The translations under genes and the position numbers were made by a program. The notes beneath the pieces are model-generated. The model was not told where the DNA came from, ran no database searches, and saw only the letters and a program-made list of their open reading frames with translations. Source: Candidatus Pelearchaeum maunauluense (GTDB taxonomy: Archaea; Thermoproteota; Nitrososphaeria_A; Caldarchaeales; Caldarchaeaceae). From it: a stretch of DNA of 64,000 nt. How positions within the stretch are numbered: the first letter of the stretch is position 1; the number at the start of each line of letters is the position of its first letter. This document shows positions 48,319 to 58,096 of this stretch, piece by piece. Location: positions 1 through 64,000 of the forward strand of contig JANVYQ010000006.1 in assembly GCA_030059675.1 (NCBI GenBank). The letters run 5' to 3'.

Positions 48319-49647
48319 ATGGTGAAGGCTCTAATGGGGAGGTCGGCCAGCGAGATAATAGAGAGGGACTCGCGTCTCTTTATGCGCTGCTACCCGGCCC
48401 GTACAAAACTCGTAATAGCACGTGGCCGTGGAGCTGAAGTATGGGATGTTGAGGGAAAGAGATACTTAGACCTCTTCTCAGGTATTGCGGTGAATAACGT
48501 AGGCCACTGCCATCCGCGCGTTGTTGAAGCTATACGAAGGCAGTCTGAGGAACTTATACATACGTCCATGCTCTATTATAACGAGACTGTGCTAAAGCTT
48601 GCCGAGAAGCTGGCTGGAATCGTGCCCAGCGGTCTCTCCCGTTTCTTCTTCGCCAATAGCGGGGCTGAGGCTGTTGAAGGGGCTGTGAAGCTGGCCAAGA
48701 AGTATGCGGCAAAACGCGGTATGGGGGGAGCGCAGGTAATAGCTCTTGACTGCTCCTTTCATGGACGGACATCACTAGCGCTAACCCTGACAGGCCAGAA
48801 AAAGTATAAACAAGGCCTGGGGAATTTCGCCAACTCTCCAGGCGTTGTGCACGCGCCCTCACCATACTGTTACCGCTGTCCCCTGGGTCTCAGATACCCA
48901 GAATGCGGAATAGCATGCGCAGATGCCCTAGAGAGGGTTTTTGAGTTTAGAACCTCTGGAGAGGTTGCCGCCGTTATTGTTGAGCCTGTACAAGGGGAGG
49001 GTGGAATAATAGTCCCGCCTGACGAGTATCTACCGCGTGTGCAGAGCATATGCCGCGAGCATGGCGCTGCGTTTATCGTGGATGAAGTCCAGACAGGGCT
49101 TGGGAGAACTGGCAAGATATTCGCGGCAGAACACTGGGGACTTGAGCCTGACATAATGACCATGGCTAAGGCGCTTGGGGGAGGGCTCCCAATAGGAGCT
49201 ATAGCTGCGCGCGAAGAGGTAGCTAATGCTTTCGAGGCTGGAGACCACTTCTCAACATTCGGCGGCAACCCAGTATCATGCGCCGCTGCTATAGCTGCCA
49301 TAGATGTCCTCATTGATGAGAAGCTGCATGAGAGGGCTGAGAAGCTGGGAAATCTTCTGCTCAAAATGTTTAGAAATGCTCAGGATGAGGCCGAGCTCAT
49401 AGGCGATGTGAGAGGGAAGGGGCTTATGATAGGTATTGAGCTGGTTAAGGATAGGGAGGGTAAGCAACCAGCGTCTGACGAAGCAAGCAAAACCAGCGAG
49501 GAAGCGCTGAAGAAAGGCATCATAATAGGCGTGGGAGGAGTGAAAAAGAATGTCATAAGAATACAACCACCACTGGTCATAACTGAGGAACAGGCACAGA
49601 AAGCAGCGGAGGAAATCATCGCAATAATCAAACAGATTAAGAAATGA
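48319..49647 (+). CDS. Class III aminotransferase (GabT/ArgD-like)
   Basis: NSGAEAVE, SFHGRT, EPVQGEGG, DEVQTGLGRTG, AKALGGG, STFGGNP. Confidence 0.9.
   Translation: MVKALMGRSASEIIERDSRLFMRCYPARTKLVIARGRGAEVWDVEGKRYLDLFSGIAVNNVGHCHPRVVEAIRRQSEELIHTSMLYYNETVLKLAEKLAGIVPSGLSRFFFANSGAEAVEGAVKLAKKYAAKRGMGGAQVIALDCSFHGRTSLALTLTGQKKYKQGLGNFANSPGVVHAPSPYCYRCPLGLRYPECGIACADALERVFEFRTSGEVAAVIVEPVQGEGGIIVPPDEYLPRVQSICREHGAAFIVDEVQTGLGRTGKIFAAEHWGLEPDIMTMAKALGGGLPIGAIAAREEVANAFEAGDHFSTFGGNPVSCAAAIAAIDVLIDEKLHERAEKLGNLLLKMFRNAQDEAELIGDVRGKGLMIGIELVKDREGKQPASDEASKTSEEALKKGIIIGVGGVKKNVIRIQPPLVITEEQAQKAAEEIIAIIKQIKK
48868..48924 (+). repeat. 57-bp exact inverted repeat, copy 2
   Basis: tgttaccgctgtcccctgggtctcagatacccagaatgcggaatagcatgcgcagat. 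Confidence 0.95.
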
Positions 49648-49702
49648 ACAGCCTGTTCTATTATCTAGAAATAAATACATCCAGCAGGCTCTTATTTTTG
49701 AG

Positions 49703-50149
49703 ATGAAAGAGGGTTATGCATCTATTCTAGCTGCATCACTGGTGTCTGTGGCTGTTATTGCTGTGGGTTTTCTCGTACTGAGCTGGCAGCAGTGCCAATA
49801 CACTACCACGCTTGTAGAAGACGCTGCCCTTAGACGTGATGGTGTTGTGCTAATAAGTAGCGTAGGAAAATGCGGAAGCCTGGAAAAGCCTACAATAACG
49901 TATAAAAGGGCTGGAGAATACCTAATCCTAACATACAGCGAGCCAGCTAACAATATCTGCTACCGCCACATCATAGAGAGTGTCAAAACCCAGGAAGGAG
50001 ATACGCCGCTAATTAGGATAGAGCTACGCCTAGTAGAGACGAGCGAGGCCTGTGTTATGTGCGTAGGCTACATAACAACAACACTCACTATAGGCCCGCT
50101 GCCCGAAGGGGCGCGGGTGTATGTTAATGGCTTATTGGCCGCTGCGTAA
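49703..50149 (+). CDS. Hypothetical membrane-anchored protein
   Basis: N-terminal TM helix, beta-rich Cys-containing ectodomain; fills the intergenic gap. Confidence 0.65.
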   Translation: MKEGYASILAASLVSVAVIAVGFLVLSWQQCQYTTTLVEDAALRRDGVVLISSVGKCGSLEKPTITYKRAGEYLILTYSEPANNICYRHIIESVKTQEGDTPLIRIELRLVETSEACVMCVGYITTTLTIGPLPEGARVYVNGLLAAA

Positions 50150-50163
50150 AAGGCTTATATAGA
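50147..50163 (+). promoter_or_regulatory. Putative BRE/TATA promoter of the leader-ask-asd-aro operon
   Basis: AAAAGGC followed by TTATATAG (50155-50162), about 30 nt ahead of the leader RBS. Confidence 0.6.
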
Positions 50164-50201
50164 AAAAGGGAAATCAAACAAAACACGACCAGGAGGTGCG
50201 C

Positions 50202-50276
50202 GTGGTGAGGGCAGTAGGACTAACCTGTACAGGCTTTAGCGCCTTCACCACGTTTAGCTATTATTATCGCTGGTAA
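50202..50276 (+). CDS. Putative aromatic-amino-acid leader peptide (M[V]RAVGLTCTGFSAFTTFSYYYRW)
   Basis: RBS AGGAGGTG at 50191-50198, GTG starts at 50202/50205, TAA at 50274-50276; 7 of the last 13 residues are F/Y/W. Confidence 0.8.
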   Translation: MVRAVGLTCTGFSAFTTFSYYYRW

Positions 50277-50334
50277 GCCGCCTCCGGTTTCGGTTCTTGT
50301 TTGTTCCTTTTTCTCCGTTTCTGGGGGGTGGTTT
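50275..50334 (+). promoter_or_regulatory. Putative attenuator: anti-RBS stem enclosing a U/C-rich tract
   Basis: AAGCCGCCTCC (50275-50285) can pair with GGGGGTGGTTT (50324-50334, the RBS of ask); U-rich 50288-50322 in between. Confidence 0.6.
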
Positions 50335-50335
50335 T

Positions 50336-51559
50336 ATGGGCAAAATAGTTGTAGTGAAGTTTGGTGGTTCTGTCCTCTCCGATGAGCGAAGCATAGAACG
50401 CGCAGCTAGGTGGTTGAAGGGTCTCCGTGATAAGGGCTTAAGCCCTGTTGTCGTCGTTTCGGCTCTACGCGGCGTAACTGATGAGCTACTTAAGACAGCA
50501 CAGCGCCTAAACCCCGAAGCCCCACCTGAGCTCATGGATGAAGTACTCGCCATGGGCGAGAGAACCAGCGCGAGGCTCTTCGCATTAGCCCTAACCAGAG
50601 AAGGCGTGGACGCCCTCGTGGTAGACCCAGACTCTACGCTATGGCCTGTTATAACCGACGAGAAACACCTAGACGCTACGCCTATACTGGACGAATGCAG
50701 GAGAAAAGCCTCCGAGGGTCTTCTGCCAGAGATTGCGGCAGGTAGGGTTCCAGTGGTCTGCGGCTACATAGGGGTATCCAAGACTGGGCGTATAACCACG
50801 CTGGGACGTGGGGGAAGCGACACTACAGCGGTTCTCCTAGCCAACTGTCTAGATGCCGAGGAGGTCGTCTTGGTGAAAGATGTGGGCGGGATACATTCGG
50901 CAGACCCGCGGAAGACACGAGAAGCCGAGGTGATAGAAACCATGAGCGCCTCTGAGGTTCTCCAGCTAACCACCGGTGGCGCCAAGGTGCTCCACGCAAA
51001 AGCGCTACGCTATATGAATGACAGTATGAGAATACGGGTAGGGACTCTTGAATCCCTTGAAGAAGGCGGGACGCTCATAACAGCTTCAGGTATGCCAAAA
51101 CTGGAGGTGGTGGCTACCCACGATAACGTGACGATGGTTACTATAATTGGTAAGGATATGGGAGAGCCTTCGAAATTGGCGAAAATGGTGGAAGCCCTCG
51201 TGGAGGCTGACGCGAACCTTTTGGCAGCGTCAATAGAGGAGAACTCGCTAATAATATACTTGGATGGTGATGGTGATGTGGTGGAGAAACTGCATGACCT
51301 TCTCGTATCCAGCAGGCTTGGGAAGGCGATAAGCCACTTCCCAAACCTCAGTATGATAAAAGTTTCAGGAACCATGCTGGAGACAAGCCCAGGCGTCATT
51401 CACAAGATAACACAACCCCTAGCAGCGCAGGCGATAAATGTCTATGGCCTTGTTACGATAAGCTCTTCTGTCCGCCTTTTCGTCTCGTCCAAAGAAGCCT
51501 CAAAGGCTATTAACTTGATACGTGACGGGTTGAGGGAGGTAGTGGATGAAGCAGCTTAA
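50336..51559 (+). CDS. lysC: Aspartate kinase with ACT domains
   Basis: Start ATG 50336; VVKFGGS, VVVVSA, TTLGRGGSDTTA, KDVGG..SADP, GAKVLH. Confidence 0.93.
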   Translation: MGKIVVVKFGGSVLSDERSIERAARWLKGLRDKGLSPVVVVSALRGVTDELLKTAQRLNPEAPPELMDEVLAMGERTSARLFALALTREGVDALVVDPDSTLWPVITDEKHLDATPILDECRRKASEGLLPEIAAGRVPVVCGYIGVSKTGRITTLGRGGSDTTAVLLANCLDAEEVVLVKDVGGIHSADPRKTREAEVIETMSASEVLQLTTGGAKVLHAKALRYMNDSMRIRVGTLESLEEGGTLITASGMPKLEVVATHDNVTMVTIIGKDMGEPSKLAKMVEALVEADANLLAASIEENSLIIYLDGDGDVVEKLHDLLVSSRLGKAISHFPNLSMIKVSGTMLETSPGVIHKITQPLAAQAINVYGLVTISSSVRLFVSSKEASKAINLIRDGLREVVDEAA

Positions 51560-52601
51560 GGTAGCTATACTGGGAGCAACTGGGCTGGTGGGCCAGCACT
51601 ACATAAAACTGCTAGCGCGGCACCCTTGGTTTAAGATAGCGACACTTACGGGCAAGGAGTCTGTAGGCAAGAAGTATGCGGAAGCTGTCAGAGGCGAGGC
51701 TCCAGACCCGCCTAAGGAGATAGCCGAGATGGAGGTAGTTCCCACAGAGCCAAAGTATGTTGATGCTGATTTTGTATTCTCCTGTCTCCCTACTGAGGCT
51801 GCTCGTGAGGCTGAGCCGAGTTTTGCGAAGGCAGGCTTCCCAGTGGTAAGTGACGCCTCGGCGCATAGGATGGATGATGATGTGCCGCTCATAATACCAG
51901 AGGTTAATCCAGGGCATCTGAAGCTGGTGGAAGCCCAGAGAAAAAGACGTGGCTGGGATGGCTTTATAGTAACAACGCCAAACTGCACTACCGTAGGGCT
52001 TGCGCTAACCCTATACCCGCTCCACAAGACGTATAACATCAGAAAAGCCGTTGTAACCACCATGCAGGCAGTATCTGGCGCAGGCTATCCGGGGGTTCCC
52101 TCGCTCTCAATAATGGGAAACGTCATACCATACATATCTGGCGAGGAAAAGAAGGTGGAGGTAGAAACCCTAAAGATACTCGGAAACCTTGAGAACAGTA
52201 TAGTAAAACCTGCCTCGCTGGAAATAGAAACTACATGCACACGCGTTCCTACGATAGATGGGCATCTTGAGTCTCTGCATATAGAGGCGGAGCGGCCAAT
52301 AAACGTGGATGAAGCCAAATCCGTCTTGGCCGAGTTTACTTCCGTGCCGCAGGAGCTTAACTTACCAACCGCTCCGCGTAGGCCGATAATCGTGAGGGAG
52401 GAGCAGGACAGGCCGCAGCCTAGGATAGATGCCGACGCAGGGACAGTGCCAGGGATGAGCGTTACGGTAGGCAGGGTAAGGCAGGGAAAGAGGCCGACAA
52501 CTCTTAACCTTCTGCTCCTGAGCCACAACTTAATACGAGGCGCCGCAGGCGTCGCTATACTCACGGCAGAACTAGCGCATCATTACGGGATGCTGAGGTG
52601 A
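51546..52601 (+). CDS. asd: Aspartate-semialdehyde dehydrogenase (archaeal/fungal type)
   Basis: GATGLVG, PEVN, PNCTT, QAVSGAG, RVPTIDGH, HNLIRGAAG. Confidence 0.95.
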   Translation: MKQLKVAILGATGLVGQHYIKLLARHPWFKIATLTGKESVGKKYAEAVRGEAPDPPKEIAEMEVVPTEPKYVDADFVFSCLPTEAAREAEPSFAKAGFPVVSDASAHRMDDDVPLIIPEVNPGHLKLVEAQRKRRGWDGFIVTTPNCTTVGLALTLYPLHKTYNIRKAVVTTMQAVSGAGYPGVPSLSIMGNVIPYISGEEKKVEVETLKILGNLENSIVKPASLEIETTCTRVPTIDGHLESLHIEAERPINVDEAKSVLAEFTSVPQELNLPTAPRRPIIVREEQDRPQPRIDADAGTVPGMSVTVGRVRQGKRPTTLNLLLLSHNLIRGAAGVAILTAELAHHYGMLR

Positions 52602-52610
52602 ACTAATGCT

Positions 52611-53393
52611 ATGGTCTTCGGAAAACAGGTTCGCCTAGCAAGAATAACCGAGAACGGCAGAATGCTCTGCATACCCATGGACCACGGCGTAAGTGAAGGT
52701 CCTATTGCCGGTCTTGAGAATATCCATGATATGATGTTTATGCTTGAGGATGCGGGTGTAACGGCTCTACTCGCGCATAAGGGGGTCTTTAGAACGCTTC
52801 CACGTCCCCTAAAGGTTGGAGCAATAATGCATATGTCGGCTAGCACGAAGCTCAGCAGTAAGCCCAACTGGAAAGTCCAGGTGGCGTCAATAGAGGAGGC
52901 AATAAGACTGGGCGTTGACGCTGTTTCGGTCCATGTAAATATAGGAGGCGAGGATGATGCTGATATGTTATCCACGCTGGGGAGAATCGCGGATGTTTGC
53001 GACGACTTACAGATACCTTTTATCGCTATGATGTATCCGCGTGGCCCTAATATCAAGGATGATCGCGATCCTTCTGCGATAGCGCATGTGGCTCGAGTGG
53101 GAGCGGAGCTGGGGGCAGACATCGTAAAGACACCCATGCCGTCGGCTGAGCCTGATGAGATTAGGAAAGTCGTCAGGAGCTGCCCTGTACCTGTGGTGGC
53201 TGCTGGCGGGCCAAAGATGGAGCGCGACGAGGATGTTCTAAGGCTAGCGTGGGCGGTTATCCAAGGCGGCGGCATGGGAATAACCTTCGGTAGAAACGTC
53301 TTCCAACACAGCAGGCCGCGGCAGATTGTAAAGGCGCTCCGCGAGGTTATCTTCAACGGCAAGAAGCCTGAGGAGGCTTTACAAGTGGTATGA
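52611..53393 (+). CDS. aroA': 2-amino-3,7-dideoxy-D-threo-hept-6-ulosonate (ADH) synthase, DhnA-type aldolase
   Basis: PMDHG, VSVHVNIG, MYPRG, ELGADIVKT, AGGPK, GRNVFQ; adjacent to DHQ synthase II. Confidence 0.88.
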   Translation: MVFGKQVRLARITENGRMLCIPMDHGVSEGPIAGLENIHDMMFMLEDAGVTALLAHKGVFRTLPRPLKVGAIMHMSASTKLSSKPNWKVQVASIEEAIRLGVDAVSVHVNIGGEDDADMLSTLGRIADVCDDLQIPFIAMMYPRGPNIKDDRDPSAIAHVARVGAELGADIVKTPMPSAEPDEIRKVVRSCPVPVVAAGGPKMERDEDVLRLAWAVIQGGGMGITFGRNVFQHSRPRQIVKALREVIFNGKKPEEALQVV

Positions 53394-54409
53394 AGCGGGT
53401 AATTATAGCGTTCAATAAATGGGATGAGCAGCTCGTACAGAAGGCAGCGAGGCTGGGGTTTAGGGAGTTTCTGGCCGAAAATCCAGAACAAGCACCGAGA
53501 GATGCTATAATCTATCTGGAGGAGTCTGGGAAGCGTCTCAAGCTAGCTGCAGATGGTAAGAGGGTGGAGGTTCCAGTTGTGCATGTAAAGACGCCCACCG
53601 ACCTTGAGCGTGTGGTTGAGCTGGGCAGGGCTGGGGCTGGAGAGGTGCATGTTAGGGCTGGAGACTGGAAGATAATTCCTCTGGAGAACCTTATCGCTAT
53701 GAAGCGTGGGCTTAAGATAGACGTGATAGCTGAGGCTGGCTCGCCCTCTGAGGCTGAGCTCATGTTTGGGATACTTGAACAGGGTGTTGATGGTGTAGTG
53801 GTGAGGGTAGCAAACGCGGGTGAGTTGGAGCTGATTAATGACGTGGCCAAAGCACCGACAAGCCTCAGACTTGACGAGGCGGTGGTGGAAGAGATAAAGG
53901 ATGTAGGGATGGGTGATAGGGTATGCGTGGATACTGTTGCTGTTCTTGAGTATGGTGAGGGGCTTCTAGTGGGAAGCATGGCGCGCATGTTCTTCCTAAT
54001 ACATAACGAGTCGGTAGGCTCTGCATTTACGTCGCCGAGGCCGTTTAGAGTAAATGCTGGCGCTGTCCATAGCTATGTCCTTATGCCAGATGGTAAGACG
54101 AAGTATCTCTCTGAGATAGGTGCGGGTGATAGGGTGTTGGTGGTCAGCAGTAAGGGGAAGACACGCATAGCTGCTGTAGGGAGGGCGAAGGTTGAGCGCA
54201 GGCCTATGCGGCTCGTAAGAGCGCGGATAGGAGAGAGCTGGGGAGCGGTAACAGTCCAGAACGCAGAGACCATAAGATTCGTAACACCAGACCATAAGCT
54301 CATATCTGTAACCGAGCTAAAGGAAGGAGATAGAATACTCTGCCACATGGCACCTGAGAAAGCGAGGCACTTTGGAATGGCTGTAGATGAGATGATTATA
54401 GAGCGTTGA
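53390..54409 (+). CDS. aroB': 3-dehydroquinate synthase II
   Basis: WKIIPLENLIA, GDRVCVDT, RPFRVNAGAVHSY, QNAETIR, RHFG. Confidence 0.95.
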   Translation: MKRVIIAFNKWDEQLVQKAARLGFREFLAENPEQAPRDAIIYLEESGKRLKLAADGKRVEVPVVHVKTPTDLERVVELGRAGAGEVHVRAGDWKIIPLENLIAMKRGLKIDVIAEAGSPSEAELMFGILEQGVDGVVVRVANAGELELINDVAKAPTSLRLDEAVVEEIKDVGMGDRVCVDTVAVLEYGEGLLVGSMARMFFLIHNESVGSAFTSPRPFRVNAGAVHSYVLMPDGKTKYLSEIGAGDRVLVVSSKGKTRIAAVGRAKVERRPMRLVRARIGESWGAVTVQNAETIRFVTPDHKLISVTELKEGDRILCHMAPEKARHFGMAVDEMIIER

Positions 54410-54412
54410 AGA

Positions 54413-55096
54413 ATGAAGACAAGACTCTGTGTATCAACCTACGGTAATGATGTCGGAGAGCTGTCGCATAGGATAGGCGAAGCCCTAGACGCTGGCGCCG
54501 AGCTGGTTGAGGCAAGGCTTGACTACCTAAAACTAATAGAGCCAGAGACGCTGGTAAGAGTTCTCAAACCATATGCTGACAAGCTCATAATAACTCTTAG
54601 ACCAAAAAACCAAGGAGGACTATACGTTGGAGACGAAGCCCATAGAGTATCAATGCTCACTAAGCTATGTAGAATATCGCCAGCTTATGTTGATGTGGAA
54701 CTTAATGCGGCAACTCCAACTCTCATAGATAGCATAAAGCGAGAAAATGTGAAAATAATAATCTCTTGGCACGACTATACTAGAACACCTGAGCAGGATT
54801 TTCTAAGGAACCTCTGTGAGAAGGCTCTCACTATGGGTGATGTCGCCAAAATAGTTACGCTCTCAAGTTGTGAAGAAGATAATCTACGTGTGGTTAAGCT
54901 ATACGCCTACTATCCGCCTGAGCGTTTAGTGGCTTTCTGCATGGGTGAATCTGGCAGAGTAACGCGCTTGCTGGCGGTGTGCGCTGGAGCGCCTATCATG
55001 TATGTGTCTCTTGGAGGGAGAGCCACGGCGGCGGGGCAGATTGAGCTGGAAGAGATGAGGAGGCTCAGAGGCTGGGCGCTGGTGAAGAAGGCATGA
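54413..55096 (+). CDS. aroD: Type I 3-dehydroquinate dehydratase
   Basis: EARLD, TLR..QGG, SWHDY..TP, AKIV, FCMG..G.VTR, TAAGQ. Confidence 0.92.
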   Translation: MKTRLCVSTYGNDVGELSHRIGEALDAGAELVEARLDYLKLIEPETLVRVLKPYADKLIITLRPKNQGGLYVGDEAHRVSMLTKLCRISPAYVDVELNAATPTLIDSIKRENVKIIISWHDYTRTPEQDFLRNLCEKALTMGDVAKIVTLSSCEEDNLRVVKLYAYYPPERLVAFCMGESGRVTRLLAVCAGAPIMYVSLGGRATAAGQIELEEMRRLRGWALVKKA

Positions 55097-55947
55097 AGAA
55101 TAGGGGAAAGATATACGGTGTTATTGGAGACCCTATAGAGCACTCAGTATCGCCAGCCATGTTTAACGCGGTCTTCAGAGAAGCTGGCCTATGGGATAGC
55201 ATATACACAGCCATACGCGTAGCGAGTAATGAACTCCAGCAGCTCGTCAGAGCAATTCGTCTCCTTCCTTTTGGAGGAATTAACGTAACAATACCCCATA
55301 AAGTCAGTATTATGCGTTATCTAGACCTGCTTGACGAGTCTGCAGAAGAAGTGGGGGCTGTTAATACCGTGCATGTGGCTGGTGAGGAGCTGGTTGGCTA
55401 TAATACGGATATGTTGGCCGTCATGAGAGTACTTAAGCAGTTTAAACGCGCTGGAGACGGGGCTGTTGTTCTTGGATGCGGAGGTGCCGCCAGAGCCGCC
55501 GCCATAGCGCTCAGAGAACTATCCATCAATAAACAGACCTTCGTTGGCAGAAGTAGGAAAAGAATGCGGGAGATGAAGAGATTCACCGCAAGTCGCGGGA
55601 TTGACGCAGAAATCATAAGCTTTCAAGATTCCAAACTAAACAGCGTCCTTGAAAAAAGTAGTGTTATAATAAATGCAACACCAGTAGGAATGTATCCAAA
55701 TGTTAAGAGCACACCTATATATTCCTCGTTAATACCGCGCGGTGCTGTCGTATTTGATATGGTCTATAATCCAGAGGAGACTATGCTACTCAGAGCTGCC
55801 AAGCGAAGGGGAGCGCGTATAATCGGTGGGTTGGAGATGCTGGTGACGCAAGCTGAGGAAGCTTACCGTATATGGTTTGGTAGCCGCGCGCCGCGTGATA
55901 TTATGATGAGGGCTGCACGGAACGAGTTGAGGAGGTTTAAGAAGTGA
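55093..55947 (+). CDS. aroE: Shikimate dehydrogenase
   Basis: GDPIEHSVSP, NVTIPHK, GAVNT, GYNTD, NATPVGM, DMVYNP. Confidence 0.95.
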   Translation: MKNRGKIYGVIGDPIEHSVSPAMFNAVFREAGLWDSIYTAIRVASNELQQLVRAIRLLPFGGINVTIPHKVSIMRYLDLLDESAEEVGAVNTVHVAGEELVGYNTDMLAVMRVLKQFKRAGDGAVVLGCGGAARAAAIALRELSINKQTFVGRSRKRMREMKRFTASRGIDAEIISFQDSKLNSVLEKSSVIINATPVGMYPNVKSTPIYSSLIPRGAVVFDMVYNPEETMLLRAAKRRGARIIGGLEMLVTQAEEAYRIWFGSRAPRDIMMRAARNELRRFKK

Positions 55948-56813
55948 AAGGCTACGCAAAAGCTTTTGGCGCTGTATCAATAGTTAATGCAATAGCAGCA
56001 GGCCGCGGGTCGGCTTTAGGAATAGACCTATACACCGAAGCTAGTGTGGAGATAACCAATAAAACTCAAGACATAATTTTAAAGTCTGAGAATAATATTG
56101 GAGATTCTTCTCTTACGCGTGAAGTTTTTAGAATTATCGCCGAGAGGATAGGCTTGGCGGATGTTGGAGCGCTGATAAGAACCTCCTCCAACATCCCTGT
56201 AGCTGTGGGGCTTAAGAGTTCCAGCTCCTCGGCAGTAGCTATTGCTTGCGCAGTTCTTGACGCTGCGAGAGCCAGGATGCAAGATGAGGAGCTCTTATCC
56301 CTGATAGCAGAGGCTTCCTTAAGGTCGGGGACATCAATTACAGGAGCTATGGATGACGCTGCTGCATGTATGCTTGGAGGGCTTGTAATAACCGATAACA
56401 TAGGTAGAAAGCTCTTAAAACGGGTTGAAATACACGACCGCCTCTATGCGGTTATACACATACCCGAGCAGCAAAGAATATTCACACGTGACTTTAGAAA
56501 AGAGTTGTTATACCCTGTGAAGAGGCTGGTTGAGGAGGCGTTTAGGCTTGCATTAGAGGATAGGTACTGGGATGCGATGACGCTAAACGGCCTGCTCCAC
56601 GCGGCGGCGCTCTCCATCCCAGTAGCACCAGCGTTAGCCGCGTTAAGAGCAGGCGCCTTGGGGGCTGGGCTATCTGGAACAGGCCCCGCAACAGCTGCGA
56701 TATGCACAACAGACAAACTAGATGCCGTTAGAGAAGCCATGGAAGAGTATGGTGGTATGGTAATAGTTGCTCAGGTGAGCAATAAACGTGCAATAATTGG
56801 TGGCGGGTTTTGA
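55944..56813 (+). CDS. aroK: Archaeal (GHMP-type) shikimate kinase
   Basis: SIVNAIA, IPVAVGLKSSS, ITGAMDD, GLSGTGP. Confidence 0.93.
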   Translation: MKGYAKAFGAVSIVNAIAAGRGSALGIDLYTEASVEITNKTQDIILKSENNIGDSSLTREVFRIIAERIGLADVGALIRTSSNIPVAVGLKSSSSSAVAIACAVLDAARARMQDEELLSLIAEASLRSGTSITGAMDDAAACMLGGLVITDNIGRKLLKRVEIHDRLYAVIHIPEQQRIFTRDFRKELLYPVKRLVEEAFRLALEDRYWDAMTLNGLLHAAALSIPVAPALAALRAGALGAGLSGTGPATAAICTTDKLDAVREAMEEYGGMVIVAQVSNKRAIIGGGF

Positions 56814-58096
56814 TAACTGAGATAAGAAGAACATGTATTGATGGCGAGATAACCGTACCACCTAGCAAAAGCTATACCCACAGAGCAGTAGCTTTGGCGC
56901 TGCTGGCAGAAGGCGAATCCTATATAGAACGGCCACTAATATCAACAGATACTGAAGCAACAATCCATGCAGCAAAACAGTTAGGAGCCAACATAAAGAT
57001 GAAAGATAACTTACTCGTTACTACTGGGCGTAAACGCCTAAGATGCCCCGAAGACGTTATAAACGCAGAGAACTCTGGAACAACGCTACGTTTCTTCACC
57101 GCCATAGCTGCCTTGGCTGAAGCAGGTTATACTATCATAACAGGCGACGAAAGCCTCAGACGACGGCCTATGGATGCTCTTTTGGGCGCTCTTACAAAGC
57201 TGGGAGTTAGCTGCTGGTCATCTAAGGGTGATGGAACTGCACCGATAATAGTTAGGGGAGGTGGTATAAGAGGTGGTGAGACCAGCATAATAGGCTGGCA
57301 GTCATCACAGTTCATCTCCGCAATACTCATAGCGGGACAGAGAGCAGATGGTATGATAACACTACGTGTGGGAGGTGAGCCAGTCTCCAAACCCTACATA
57401 GACGCAACAATCGCGATGATAGAGCGGTTTGAAGGATGTGTGGAGAGAAGCGGCTATACGCTCTACACTGTAGGGCATCAGAGAGAGCTTAAAGCAACTG
57501 AGTTTAGAGTCCCAGGAGACTTCAGCTCTGCTTCATTTCACGTAGCCGCGGCATACCTGTCTGACGGTAGCGTTATGCTAAAGGGTCTGGATAAGAATCT
57601 ACCCCAAGCTGACGCAGCTATTCTTGACATAGCGTCAAAGATGGGCGCTGATGTGAATTGGTTATCTGGTAAAGTAGTGGTTAAGGGAAGGGGTACTCGT
57701 AAGCCAATCGAGATAAAGCTACGCGACTCCCCTGACCTATTGCCAGTGGTCGCTGTAATGGCTGCAGCCACACCTGGAACCAGCACCTTAAGAGACGTTG
57801 CACACGCACGCCTCAAGGAGAGCGACAGAATACAGATGATAGCCAAAGAACTGACAAAGCTGGGCGTTAAAACTAAGATTCTCGAAGACGGCTTGGAAAT
57901 AACTGGGCTGGAACAACCCGAAGGAGGTGTAACGATAGACTCCCACAACGACCATAGGCTTTTCATGGCCTTTACCGTGCTTGGCCTAGCATGCAAGAGA
58001 GGACTACGAATAACTGGAGCAGAATCAGCTGGTGTCTCTTATCCAGGATTTATAAACGACCTAACTAAACTCGGCGCCGAAATCCGAACAATTTAG
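56810..58096 (+). CDS. aroA: 3-phosphoshikimate 1-carboxyvinyltransferase (EPSP synthase)
   Basis: PPSKSYTHRA, NSGTTLRF, RRPM, SSQFIS, KESDRI, DHR, SYPGF. Confidence 0.95.
   Translation: MITEIRRTCIDGEITVPPSKSYTHRAVALALLAEGESYIERPLISTDTEATIHAAKQLGANIKMKDNLLVTTGRKRLRCPEDVINAENSGTTLRFFTAIAALAEAGYTIITGDESLRRRPMDALLGALTKLGVSCWSSKGDGTAPIIVRGGGIRGGETSIIGWQSSQFISAILIAGQRADGMITLRVGGEPVSKPYIDATIAMIERFEGCVERSGYTLYTVGHQRELKATEFRVPGDFSSASFHVAAAYLSDGSVMLKGLDKNLPQADAAILDIASKMGADVNWLSGKVVVKGRGTRKPIEIKLRDSPDLLPVVAVMAAATPGTSTLRDVAHARLKESDRIQMIAKELTKLGVKTKILEDGLEITGLEQPEGGVTIDSHNDHRLFMAFTVLGLACKRGLRITGAESAGVSYPGFINDLTKLGAEIRTI

Follow-up and report, generated by a model that had tools for sequence, protein, structure and literature searches.

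The window, by which we mean the whole 64,000-nt stretch of DNA analysed here, carries on its plus strand a shikimate operon whose genes overlap or are separated by gaps of 3-9 nt. Pfam identified the products, in operon order, as AA_kinase plus ACT, semialdehyde dehydrogenase, DeoC-type aldolase (aroA'), DHQS II (aroB'), type I dehydroquinase, shikimate dehydrogenase, GHMP kinase and EPSP synthase. A short ORF (sORF) rich in Phe, Tyr and Trp codons ends 59 nt before the lysC ATG (50336) and occupies the position expected of an attenuator leader, downstream of a TATA-like box and upstream of an aromatic biosynthetic operon. The TATA box begins shortly after the stop codon of an upstream ORF spanning 49703-50149. 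An earlier sequence-only reading had listed the TATA box, the ribosome-binding site (RBS), the sORF and two stems, all of which were found where it had placed them. The features are as follows.

50155-50162, plus strand: TATA box TTATATAG of the leader-lysC transcript, just 3' of the upstream ORF stop
50191-50198, plus strand: Shine-Dalgarno sequence (SD) of the leader ORF, AGGAGGTG, segment 1 of the proposed switch, able to pair with the anti-SD strand
50200-50212 with 50241-50253, plus strand: Stem A, 13 bp with one G-U, joining the leader start codons to codons A13-T16 in the minimum free energy (MFE) fold
50205-50276, plus strand: leader ORF of 23 codons plus TAA (50274-50276), encoding MRAVGLTCTGFSAFTTFSYYYRW
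50235-50273, plus strand: aromatic-codon tail (F11, F14, F17, Y19-Y21, W23), the proposed stall sites
50269-50287, plus strand: segment 2, the anti-SD strand in the MFE fold, comprising codons CGC-UGG, stop UAA and GCCGCCUCCGG
50288-50320, plus strand: U/C-rich spacer with T5 at 50308-50312, from its sequence a possible archaeal oligo-U termination site
50321-50341, plus strand: segment 3, the lysC translation initiation region (TIR), with SD GGGGGGUGG at 50323-50331 and AUG at 50336-50338, pairing with segment 2
50336-58096, plus strand: operon lysC-asd-aroA'-aroB'-aroD-aroE-aroK(GHMP)-aroA, identified by Pfam

In-frame GTG codons occur at 50196, 50202 and 50205, and the ORF is listed as 50196-50276; the GTG at 50205 has the best SD spacing (6 nt), with 50202 and 50196 as alternative leader starts. 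Three Phe, three tandem Tyr and a terminal Trp codon fall within the last 13 codons, making seven of these 13 aromatic, an enrichment of end-product codons typical of attenuators; the leader also contains four Thr codons. TAT and TTT make up 47% and 34% of their respective codon families, which is unremarkable, i.e. neither codon is rare. Database comparisons returned nothing beyond chance: NCBIfam gave no match for six leaders at E values up to 10, Pfam a single chance-level match to the leader peptides (E = 0.19), Rfam 15 only chance-level matches on 49000-51500 (E of at least 4.4) and none with E of 1 or less on 11 orthologous loci. No tRNA gene was found in the 64,000 nt of the window. Upstream of pheA, the hisD (his) operon and the aroC unit of this genome no comparable leader was obvious. 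Chorismate_bind gave only a 41-bit partial match in this genome.

The usual archaeal spacing between TATA box and transcription start site (TSS) would place the start of the leader-lysC transcript at about 50185-50190, a prediction taken solely from the position of the box. Of 60 loci, 35 have a strict TATA-like pattern 5' of the leader, for the most part at a distance of 42-48 nt from its start. A scan for sigma-70 promoters, whose consensus is not applicable to archaea, returned no match.

If the sORF is functional, similar sORFs should precede orthologous operons, as the sequence-only reading had anticipated, and this expectation was strongly borne out. By one fixed criterion, a Phe/Tyr/Trp-rich sORF ending shortly before the orthologous lysC was present in 53 of 78 loci of the phylum (19/38 in the window's class and 34/40 in the other classes), compared with 161 of 3900 dinucleotide shuffles (4.1%), 3 of 78 loci on the opposite strand (reverse complement) and 24 of 1747 upstream regions of this genome (1.4%). 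Only two of those 1747 regions, the window leader being one, reach at least six aromatic codons in ten. Six further loci of one genus share a conserved sORF, VRDCLFLTTGYSYYRYSETGASL, that falls just short of the criterion. Even within the window's own family, several species are among the 25 of 78 loci where the element is absent or degenerate; in one family member, L011, the aromatic frame is present but has no ATG, GTG or TTG start. A contig scan with very general aspartokinase patterns yielded, among the matches listed, mostly bacterial kinases, and loci L031-L037 were used. Beyond the phylum, 4 of 15 loci in a second one carry a sORF of this kind, and F/W-rich sORFs lie immediately before aroA' in 3 of 20 aroB' loci sampled from a third, the other 17 having no aromatic sORF adjoining the operon. 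None was seen at the Asgard-type lysC2-aro loci L160-L164 and L168. The same leader stands upstream of lysC-aroA'-aroB'-aroD in a Bathyarchaeota MAG, and in the third phylum it stands before aroA'-aroB' without lysC. Since it precedes aroA'-aroB' even where lysC is missing, the leader tracks the aromatic pathway.

What is conserved within the peptides is the aromatic composition of the tail, and only that. Leaders range from 17 to about 50 codons, and their N-terminal halves are not conserved. The same-genus orthologue of the window leader is VVRATGLTYTGFSTFTTFSYYYRW; two species of this genus differ by three codon changes, all non-synonymous and all before an identical tail. Over the last 12 codons of 60 leaders, Tyr, Phe and Trp account for 403 of 720 residues (207 Y, 174 F and 22 W), that is 56% against 8.3% in the proteome, and both synonymous codons are in use (TAT 148, TAC 59, TTT 88, TTC 86). 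The last aromatic codon lies 0-3 codons from the stop in 53 of the 60. The same tails spoke against a further suggestion of the sequence-only reading, that the leader might also sense Thr for the shared ask/asd steps: Thr contributes 24 of 720 residues against 4.9% in the proteome and is not enriched, and Thr sensing as a general feature is rejected. Taken from sequence comparison, the element is very probably a genuine, conserved cis-regulatory leader ORF.

The leader RNA of the window can adopt alternative structures. Its MFE fold contains both Stem A and a long helix between 50269-50287 and 50321-50341. The first had been noted as a 12-bp stem over the leader start and appears with 13 bp; the second had been described as an 11-bp stem hiding the lysC RBS, and proved to be real, longer than that, and to cover the lysC AUG as well. 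The sequestering strand starts at the Arg codon, two codons before the stop. The fold of the whole leader is only modestly more stable than expected (−55.9 kcal/mol, z = −2.05), 6 of 200 shuffled sequences folding as well, while the duplex of segment 2 with the lysC TIR, at −24.4 kcal/mol, has z = −2.76 against shuffled partners. Segment 2 can instead pair with the beginning of the leader: the duplex between leader SD and leader 3' end reaches −22.4 kcal/mol, and this closing helix is the MFE structure at 85 °C. The region 50269-50287 therefore has two mutually exclusive partners, the lysC TIR and the leader TIR, the dependence of the choice on the ribosome being modelled.

Duplexes between leader 3' end and lysC TIR of −22 to −30 kcal/mol, with z of −2.3 to −3.8, were obtained at every one of the five loci with a leader tested in the window's family (genera g1, g2 and g4), and at all seven of g7. 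The core of the segment 2/3 helix is paired in five of five family members, with 81% of cells paired compared with about 50% in slid controls. Pairing between leader 3' segment and leader TIR ranges from −18 to −31.5 kcal/mol across loci. Stem A is kept in the same-genus orthologue, and elsewhere other leader-TIR helices take its place. The switch architecture of the window, with its pairing to the lysC TIR, recurs in the window's family and in a single sister genus. Over all 60 loci, only 19 show sequestration of the lysC SD by the leader 3' end at the 5% significance level. Beyond the window's family and g7, most lineages have a local hairpin directly after the stop, together with an extra helix between the region preceding the start and the codons preceding the aromatic run. 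These lineages form other helices, and therefore the output mechanism may differ by lineage or be something else.

We propose a model in which the leader is a ribosome-mediated attenuator. Transcription would start after the TATA box at 50155, and the 23-codon leader would be the first cistron of an RNA with three segments: the leader SD and start; the last codons, the stop and the anti-SD GCCGCCUCC; and the lysC SD and AUG. Segment 2 would pair alternatively with segment 1 or segment 3. With Tyr-, Phe- and Trp-tRNA in ample supply, the ribosome would translate the leader to its end and depart, segments 2 and 3 would pair and lysC would go untranslated, which might leave the polymerase open to termination, either in the U-rich spacer or beyond it (polarity). 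Under a shortage of an aromatic aminoacyl-tRNA, the ribosome would dwell on the last leader codons and cover segment 2, leaving the lysC SD free in vivo for a ribosome to load, so that the operon would be expressed.

Ribosome dependence was explored with a simple footprint model in which the size of the ribosome footprint is assumed. At 37 °C, opening the lysC TIR is predicted to cost 13.5 kcal/mol, and 7.6-8.7 kcal/mol once a ribosome has its A site on R, W or the stop. The sequence-only reading had proposed that a ribosome stalled at the YYY-R-W codons covers the anti-RBS strand, blocks termination, or both; in the model, coverage of that strand applies to Y3, R and W, where the effect appears as it does at the stop, and fails for Y1 and Y2, at which the ribosome barely reaches that strand and little changes. 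Folding with and without a footprint, which that reading had put forward as a check, gave the lower opening cost at 37 °C, but the effect shrinks to at most 0.6 kcal/mol at 85 °C. Once released, the lysC SD is predicted to find weaker partners in the C/U spacer. Conservation among orthologues and the retained RBS-hiding stem support the earlier interpretation as a leader-peptide attenuator. We hold with moderate confidence that an aromatic leader peptide controls this archaeal DKFP-type shikimate operon by unmasking the lysC RBS, and consider it somewhat more likely than not that this unmasking is the primary output in this lineage.

The U-rich spacer raises the alternative that the leader acts chiefly on transcription, the leader ribosome deciding whether polymerase stops there, through intrinsic oligo-U or factor-dependent (aCPSF1/FttA-type) termination, with SD pairing secondary. 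Archaeal polymerases stop at oligo-T, and spacer T-runs are enriched: 38 of 60 loci have a run of at least four (27% of shuffles) and 21 of 60 one of at least five (10.6% of shuffles). In the window the T5 run lies within a 59-nt stretch, 50277-50335, that lacks any A, and in 21 Bathyarchaeia-type leaders a conserved hairpin follows the stop directly, its loop often holding a T-run. Yet no clear terminator of the bacterial type, a hairpin with a U-run right behind it, is evident whose formation stalling would plainly prevent. The dominant helix ends in the lysC SD and AUG, with the T5 run in its loop, and a consensus terminator scan gave three weak hairpin-plus-T sites at 50275-50331, a result to be read in the light of archaeal termination rules that differ from those of bacterial intrinsic terminators. 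Moreover, a ribosome stalled far behind the polymerase is expected to make factor-dependent termination more frequent, the reverse of what this alternative requires, unless translation of lysC sets in simultaneously, and some lineages have no T-run, the longest run being two in 11 of 60 loci. We consider transcription attenuation as the main output fairly unlikely; termination in the spacer may possibly reinforce RBS unmasking.

A translated sORF need not sense amino acids, and could encode a functional small hydrophobic peptide or serve as a constitutive coupling cistron that opens the lysC RBS. The sORF is conserved and has a good SD, and in the footprint model any ribosome at the stop codon also covers the anti-SD. 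We nevertheless judge this improbable: length and N-terminal sequence vary while only the aromatic composition of the tail is kept, the peptides match no family, loci that lack lysC keep the tie to aromatic biosynthesis genes, and simple coupling would call for no such excess of Tyr, Phe and Trp codons (56%).

Still less probable is a non-coding RNA or DNA element with an incidental frame, such as a protein- or ligand-binding RNA or a UAU/UUU run forming a second lysC TATA box, since, although aromatic codons are A/T-rich, TATTATTAT resembles an A/T box and helices flanking the aromatic run are conserved, a start, an open frame and a stop 0-3 codons from the run co-occur (53/78 loci against 4.1% of shuffles), the codons TTC, TAC and TGG are frequent, and neither the window nor 11 other loci match Rfam. 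The Tyr-codon run as a TATA box is largely rejected: of 60 loci, only three have the strict TATA-like pattern inside the last 15 leader codons and one has it in the spacer, and the promoter-like box stands about 45 nt 5' of the leader start.

Bacteria supply the textbook cases of leader-peptide attenuation, in the trp, phe/pheST, his, thr, leu and ilv systems of the E. coli type. Like those transcription attenuators, the proposed ribosome-mediated attenuator has a short leader ORF between promoter and first biosynthetic gene, end-product codons enriched near the leader 3' end, alternative RNA pairings flanking the leader and a U-rich tract before the first gene. Several points set it apart from them: it would operate in an archaeon, whose RNA polymerase resembles that of eukaryotes; no terminator made of a hairpin plus a U-run is evident; the central segment has the two ribosome-binding sites themselves as its alternative partners; and codons for Tyr, Phe and Trp, which share a common pathway, are mixed within a single leader.

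A second related mechanism is translational attenuation. In mycobacteria, ribosomes that stall on polycysteine sORFs are reported to free the RBS of the gene that follows (bioRxiv 10.1101/834739). A stalled ribosome there blocks an RBS-sequestering duplex, cysteine starvation being the direct analogue of the aromatic starvation envisaged here. In antibiotic-induced leaders of the ermC/cat type, a ribosome stalled on an upstream ORF likewise blocks the duplex sequestering the next RBS. Both differ from the archaeal case in domain of life and in the amino acids sensed; the leader described here is SD-led, unlike the leaderless polycysteine sORFs, and the strand that sequesters the lysC RBS can also pair with the SD of the leader itself, which makes the proposed switch a three-segment one.

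The openly available full-text literature yielded no description of an archaeal leader-peptide attenuator, and Rfam 15, Pfam and NCBIfam brought up no family describing the leader. The chances are about even that attenuation by end-product-rich leaders is ancient and widespread in Archaea, with one Tyr/Phe/Trp family spanning the phylum that holds Bathyarchaeia, Asgard lineages and at least some members of the third phylum, and switching the first gene's RBS and, by transcription-translation coupling, termination in the U-rich spacer. If the model is true, this would be the first class of leader-peptide attenuator described in Archaea. Its confirmation would make archaeal translating ribosomes direct sensors of aminoacyl-tRNA supply and assign a function to dozens of unannotated sORFs before ask/aro operons in archaeal metagenome-assembled genomes. 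It would also provide a natural system for the crosstalk of translation with an RNA-polymerase-II-like enzyme and a compact, heat-tolerant regulatory part for archaeal genetics, and the idea that such control predates the split of the major archaeal phyla would become testable.

Protein-based control of aromatic and tryptophan genes in archaea is exerted by DNA-binding repressors or activators of the TrpY or Tar type. The physiological target, archaeal operons for aromatic amino-acid biosynthesis, is the same, but at the present locus the conserved element is, as predicted from sequence, a sORF that is translated and accompanied by RNA helices; the window showed no repeat resembling an operator. 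Separately, loci L160-L164, from archaea without the sORF, carry a tandem repeat that is a potential operator.

The short open reading frame (sORF) before lysC (aspartokinase) most likely encodes a leader peptide that senses Tyr, Phe and Trp and gates the first gene of an archaeal shikimate operon. The sequence of 50147-50338 agrees with its description in the sequence-only reading, and the features of the locus, in forward-strand coordinates, are:

49703-50149: upstream ORF, 148 aa, stop TAA; a Pfam search matched no family
50155-50162: TATA box TTATATAG, 3' of the upstream ORF stop
50191-50198: leader Shine-Dalgarno (SD) sequence AGGAGGTG
50196, 50202 and 50205: in-frame GTG codons, that at 50205 at normal spacing to the leader SD
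50205-50276: leader ORF MRAVGLTCTGFSAFTTFSYYYRW, start at 50205, stop TAA at 50274-50276
50336-58096: operon; besides aspartokinase, Pfam identifies aspartate-semialdehyde dehydrogenase (asd), DeoC-type aldolase (aroA'), dehydroquinate synthase II (aroB'), type I dehydroquinase, shikimate dehydrogenase, a GHMP-type kinase and EPSP synthase, with genes overlapping or 3-9 nt apart

The Pfam matches to asd, aroA', aroB' and further shikimate genes bear out the aromatic operon that had been claimed to follow lysC. Aspartate semialdehyde is a substrate of the archaeal aroA'/aroB' route, which explains the presence of ask and asd within an aromatic operon; a second, distant aspartokinase-like gene (31% identity) lies elsewhere in the genome. 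The spacer of 59 nt between the leader stop and the aspartokinase ATG at 50336 (50277-50335) has no adenine before the ATG and is 79% pyrimidine as far as the SD.

Conservation was assessed with a fixed criterion: the sORF, beginning with ATG, GTG or TTG and no longer than 60 codons, had to lie no more than 250 nt upstream of the gene and to include five or more F/Y/W among ten consecutive codons, the last of these at most 8 codons before the stop. In the window's own genome 24/1747 upstream regions contain such a frame, and only two, the window leader among them, reach 6/10 aromatic codons. Orthologous lysC loci were drawn from 41 relatives, from the entire order, coextensive with its class in the set analysed (76 genomes, orthologue in 39), and from a 401-genome sample of the phylum (orthologue in 76); upstream DNA was analysed for 78 loci, one locus being excluded because its contig ends inside lysC. 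The expectation that orthologous leaders would carry F/Y/W-rich sORFs held in 53/78 loci, compared with 3/78 reverse complements and 161/3900 dinucleotide shuffles, with 19/38 in the window's class and 34/40 in other classes. These loci span at least 11 of 15 family labels and have very different nucleotide sequences, although kin are not independent; examples are MERPVGMYFYPFSRYFYYRF and MKAAHFYRFSGYTYYRI in the sister genus, MELTKNACIVFFFSFWSYYYFALA in another family of the order, and MHDAENKTAGNKSQFLSFDYYFYYYYFT, MTMASEGSRKKVFGFFYGFYFYFYFGP and MNKPIATTTTTQFGYFSGYWTFSY in other classes. Rfam families matched neither the window nor 11 other loci, and no NCBIfam or Pfam model matched the six leaders searched.

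The last 12 codons were compared in 60 leaders, the 53 found by criterion and seven picked by eye. Their 720 residues include 207 Y, 174 F and 22 W, or 56% as against 8.3% in the proteome of the window genome, and both synonymous codons are in use (TAT 148, TAC 59; TTT 88, TTC 86). The last aromatic codon lies 0-3 codons from the stop in 53/60. Between the two species of the window genus three leader codons have changed, all non-synonymously and all in the N-terminal half, while the tail FTTFSYYYRW is identical. The proposal that the leader also senses Thr does not hold as a general property, since Thr is not enriched in the tails (24/720). Elsewhere in the window genome, a 39-codon sORF with an SD (contig C14:38647-38766, minus strand) ends in ..KETTTTTY, with five consecutive Thr. 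The sole Chorismate_bind (TrpE/PabB) match in this genome, which is 94% complete, is partial (contig C2:2161-2346, 41 bits). The organism may lack anthranilate synthase, or the gene may have escaped assembly; this matters for the question of whether it makes Trp.

Both stems proposed earlier, at the leader start and over the lysC ribosome-binding site, appear in the computed fold, the latter including the AUG. The first pairs the start codons (50200-50212) with codons 13-16 (50241-50253); the second pairs the leader 3' end, 50269-50287 (CGC-UGG-UAA plus GCCGCCUCCGG), with the lysC translation initiation region (TIR), 50321-50341 (SD GGGGGGUGG plus AUG), around a loop formed by the U/C-rich tract with its T5 run. 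At 85 C the computed minimum free energy structure changes to a closing helix in which the leader's own SD takes the same anti-SD, the strand 3' of the leader stop. Computed duplexes support both alternative pairings. The leader 3' end is predicted to pair with the lysC TIR at -22 to -30 kcal/mol (z -2.3 to -3.8) in the five leader-bearing loci tested from genera g1, g2 and g4 of the window's family and in 7/7 loci of genus g7; for its pairing with the leader TIR, computed energies span -18 to -31.5 kcal/mol. The core of the lysC stem is paired in 5/5 sequences of the family alignment, with 81% of cells paired versus about 50% in slid controls, a comparison favoured by deriving the structure from one aligned sequence. 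Over all loci, pairing of the leader 3' end with the lysC SD is significant in only 19/60.

Other lineages have a different architecture. In 21 Bathyarchaeia-type leaders, the pre-start region forms a helix with the Ser-Phe-Asp/Glu/Gly codons 5' of the Tyr run, and a 9-bp hairpin starts right 3' of the stop, with 94.9% of cells paired (at most 49% in slid controls) and compensatory changes at three pairs; this hairpin leaves out the lysC SD, which follows it after a few nucleotides. Common to the lineages is a geometry in which the aromatic run is bordered on its 5' side by the end of one helix strand, and a second strand starts at or just after the stop, so that a single ribosome on the aromatic run would straddle both.

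For the window, the best-supported reading is a switch with three segments, the leader TIR, the anti-SD and the lysC TIR, in which a ribosome dwelling on the terminal aromatic codons would mask the anti-SD and so free the lysC SD. The earlier proposal that a stalled ribosome covers the anti-RBS strand gains partial support from folding with a footprint assumed to reach from -15 to +14 relative to the codon in the A site. At 37 C, opening the lysC TIR is predicted to cost 7.6-8.7 instead of 13.5 kcal/mol once the A site is at Arg, Trp or stop; with the A site at the first or second Tyr there is little change, and at 70-85 C the effect is small.

Stalling, unmasking and termination at the leader are all steps that we infer. 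The main rival, or else a second layer, is transcription termination of the intrinsic or factor-dependent kind, which may supplement the translational effect or take its place, given that spacer U-runs are enriched (at least four in 38/60 loci versus 27% of shuffles; at least five in 21/60 versus 10.6%); the output may be translational, termination-based or layered. A Tyr-codon run serving as promoter is argued against by the position of strict TATA-like patterns, which precede the leader in 35/60 loci, usually at a distance of 42-48 nt from its start, but fall within the aromatic tail in only 3/60 and in the spacer in 1/60.

The window leader functionally resembles bacterial leader-peptide attenuators and shares the features that define ribosome-mediated attenuators in general, but no bacterial-type terminator is evident. 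It comes closest to the polycysteine sORFs of mycobacteria, on which a stalled ribosome prevents formation of a duplex sequestering the next gene's ribosome-binding site (bioRxiv 10.1101/834739). Full-text literature searches, with subscription journals and supplementary files outside their scope, returned no archaeal leader-peptide attenuator, nor do the excerpted archaeal reviews and bacterial comparative papers mention one; because of that scope, novelty is claimed for the searched literature only, within which the leader is most likely a variant of ribosome-mediated attenuation undescribed for Archaea.

Within the window's own family the leader is absent or degenerate at L005, L007, L009, L010, L012 and L014-L017. 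Among the species of the family's largest genus, several (L014-L017, L007/L009/L010) have lost or degraded it, and there the upstream ORF lies close to lysC. The element is therefore dispensable or replaceable within a family. At another locus, L011, a frame rich in aromatic codons (..AFTYYWPFGYTTFSFFYYRG) lacks a canonical start codon, and six loci of genus g7 share a conserved sORF, VRDCLFLTTGYSYYRYSETGASL, below threshold with its aromatic block seven codons from the stop. Another family of the order (L028-L030) has in the leader's place only a mini-ORF, 5-45 nt before lysC; L028 and L030 encode MRW-stop there, L029 MRWWIFERRLRL (MRWWIF..). Outside the class, 6/40 loci have nothing convincing upstream of lysC.

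The leader element is real and conserved across phyla. Among the matches listed, at least four Bathyarchaeota-titled loci carry it (L032, L033, L034, L036); one of these has an upstream sequence identical to that of a locus from the window's phylum, which is therefore presumably the phylum to which Bathyarchaeia belong. In a second phylum, centred on the genome of a Jordarchaeia-titled locus, 12/151 genomes have a lysC relative (E <=1e-70); 4/15 upstream regions contain a leader by the same criterion, and a fifth, incomplete region shares the tail (..MPYWSYTYYSFYSYFSFYFRF, MAGFSYTYSYRYSYTYRV). Six second-phylum loci with a lysC paralogue adjoining aroB' (L160-L164, L168) have no aromatic sORF upstream; L160-L164, Asgard-type aro loci, carry about 70-170 nt upstream of the paralogue a tandem pair of a ~17-nt motif, GGTGATGCCCTGCCAAT, with inverted ends TTGG..CCAA (a variant in L168), which could be an operator pair or RNA hairpin pair exerting different control of the same operon. 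In the Jordarchaeia-titled lineage (L031, L171-L174) a stand-alone lysC is preceded, at a distance of about 80-180 nt, by a short sORF, M(W/R)MDYFF.., that has an SD of the GGTGA type; this sORF is under the aromatic threshold but is conserved among loci sharing 78-96% lysC identity.

A third phylum was centred on a haloarchaeal locus, with aroB' in 194/201 genomes. Three of 20 sampled (L191-L193) have an F/W-rich sORF (..ELFWFRFWFSYQ, MPMSFETATRTTWNLFSFWFSF, ..AFFGYYRYFFAYFFSFGFWYRF) directly before an aroA'-aroB' unit without lysC, the first downstream gene being a DeoC-type aldolase. Taken with a Bathyarchaeota MAG in which the leader precedes lysC-aroA'-aroB'-aroD, these loci indicate that the element follows the aromatic pathway, not aspartokinase as such. 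L191 has two tandem DeoC-family aldolase genes.
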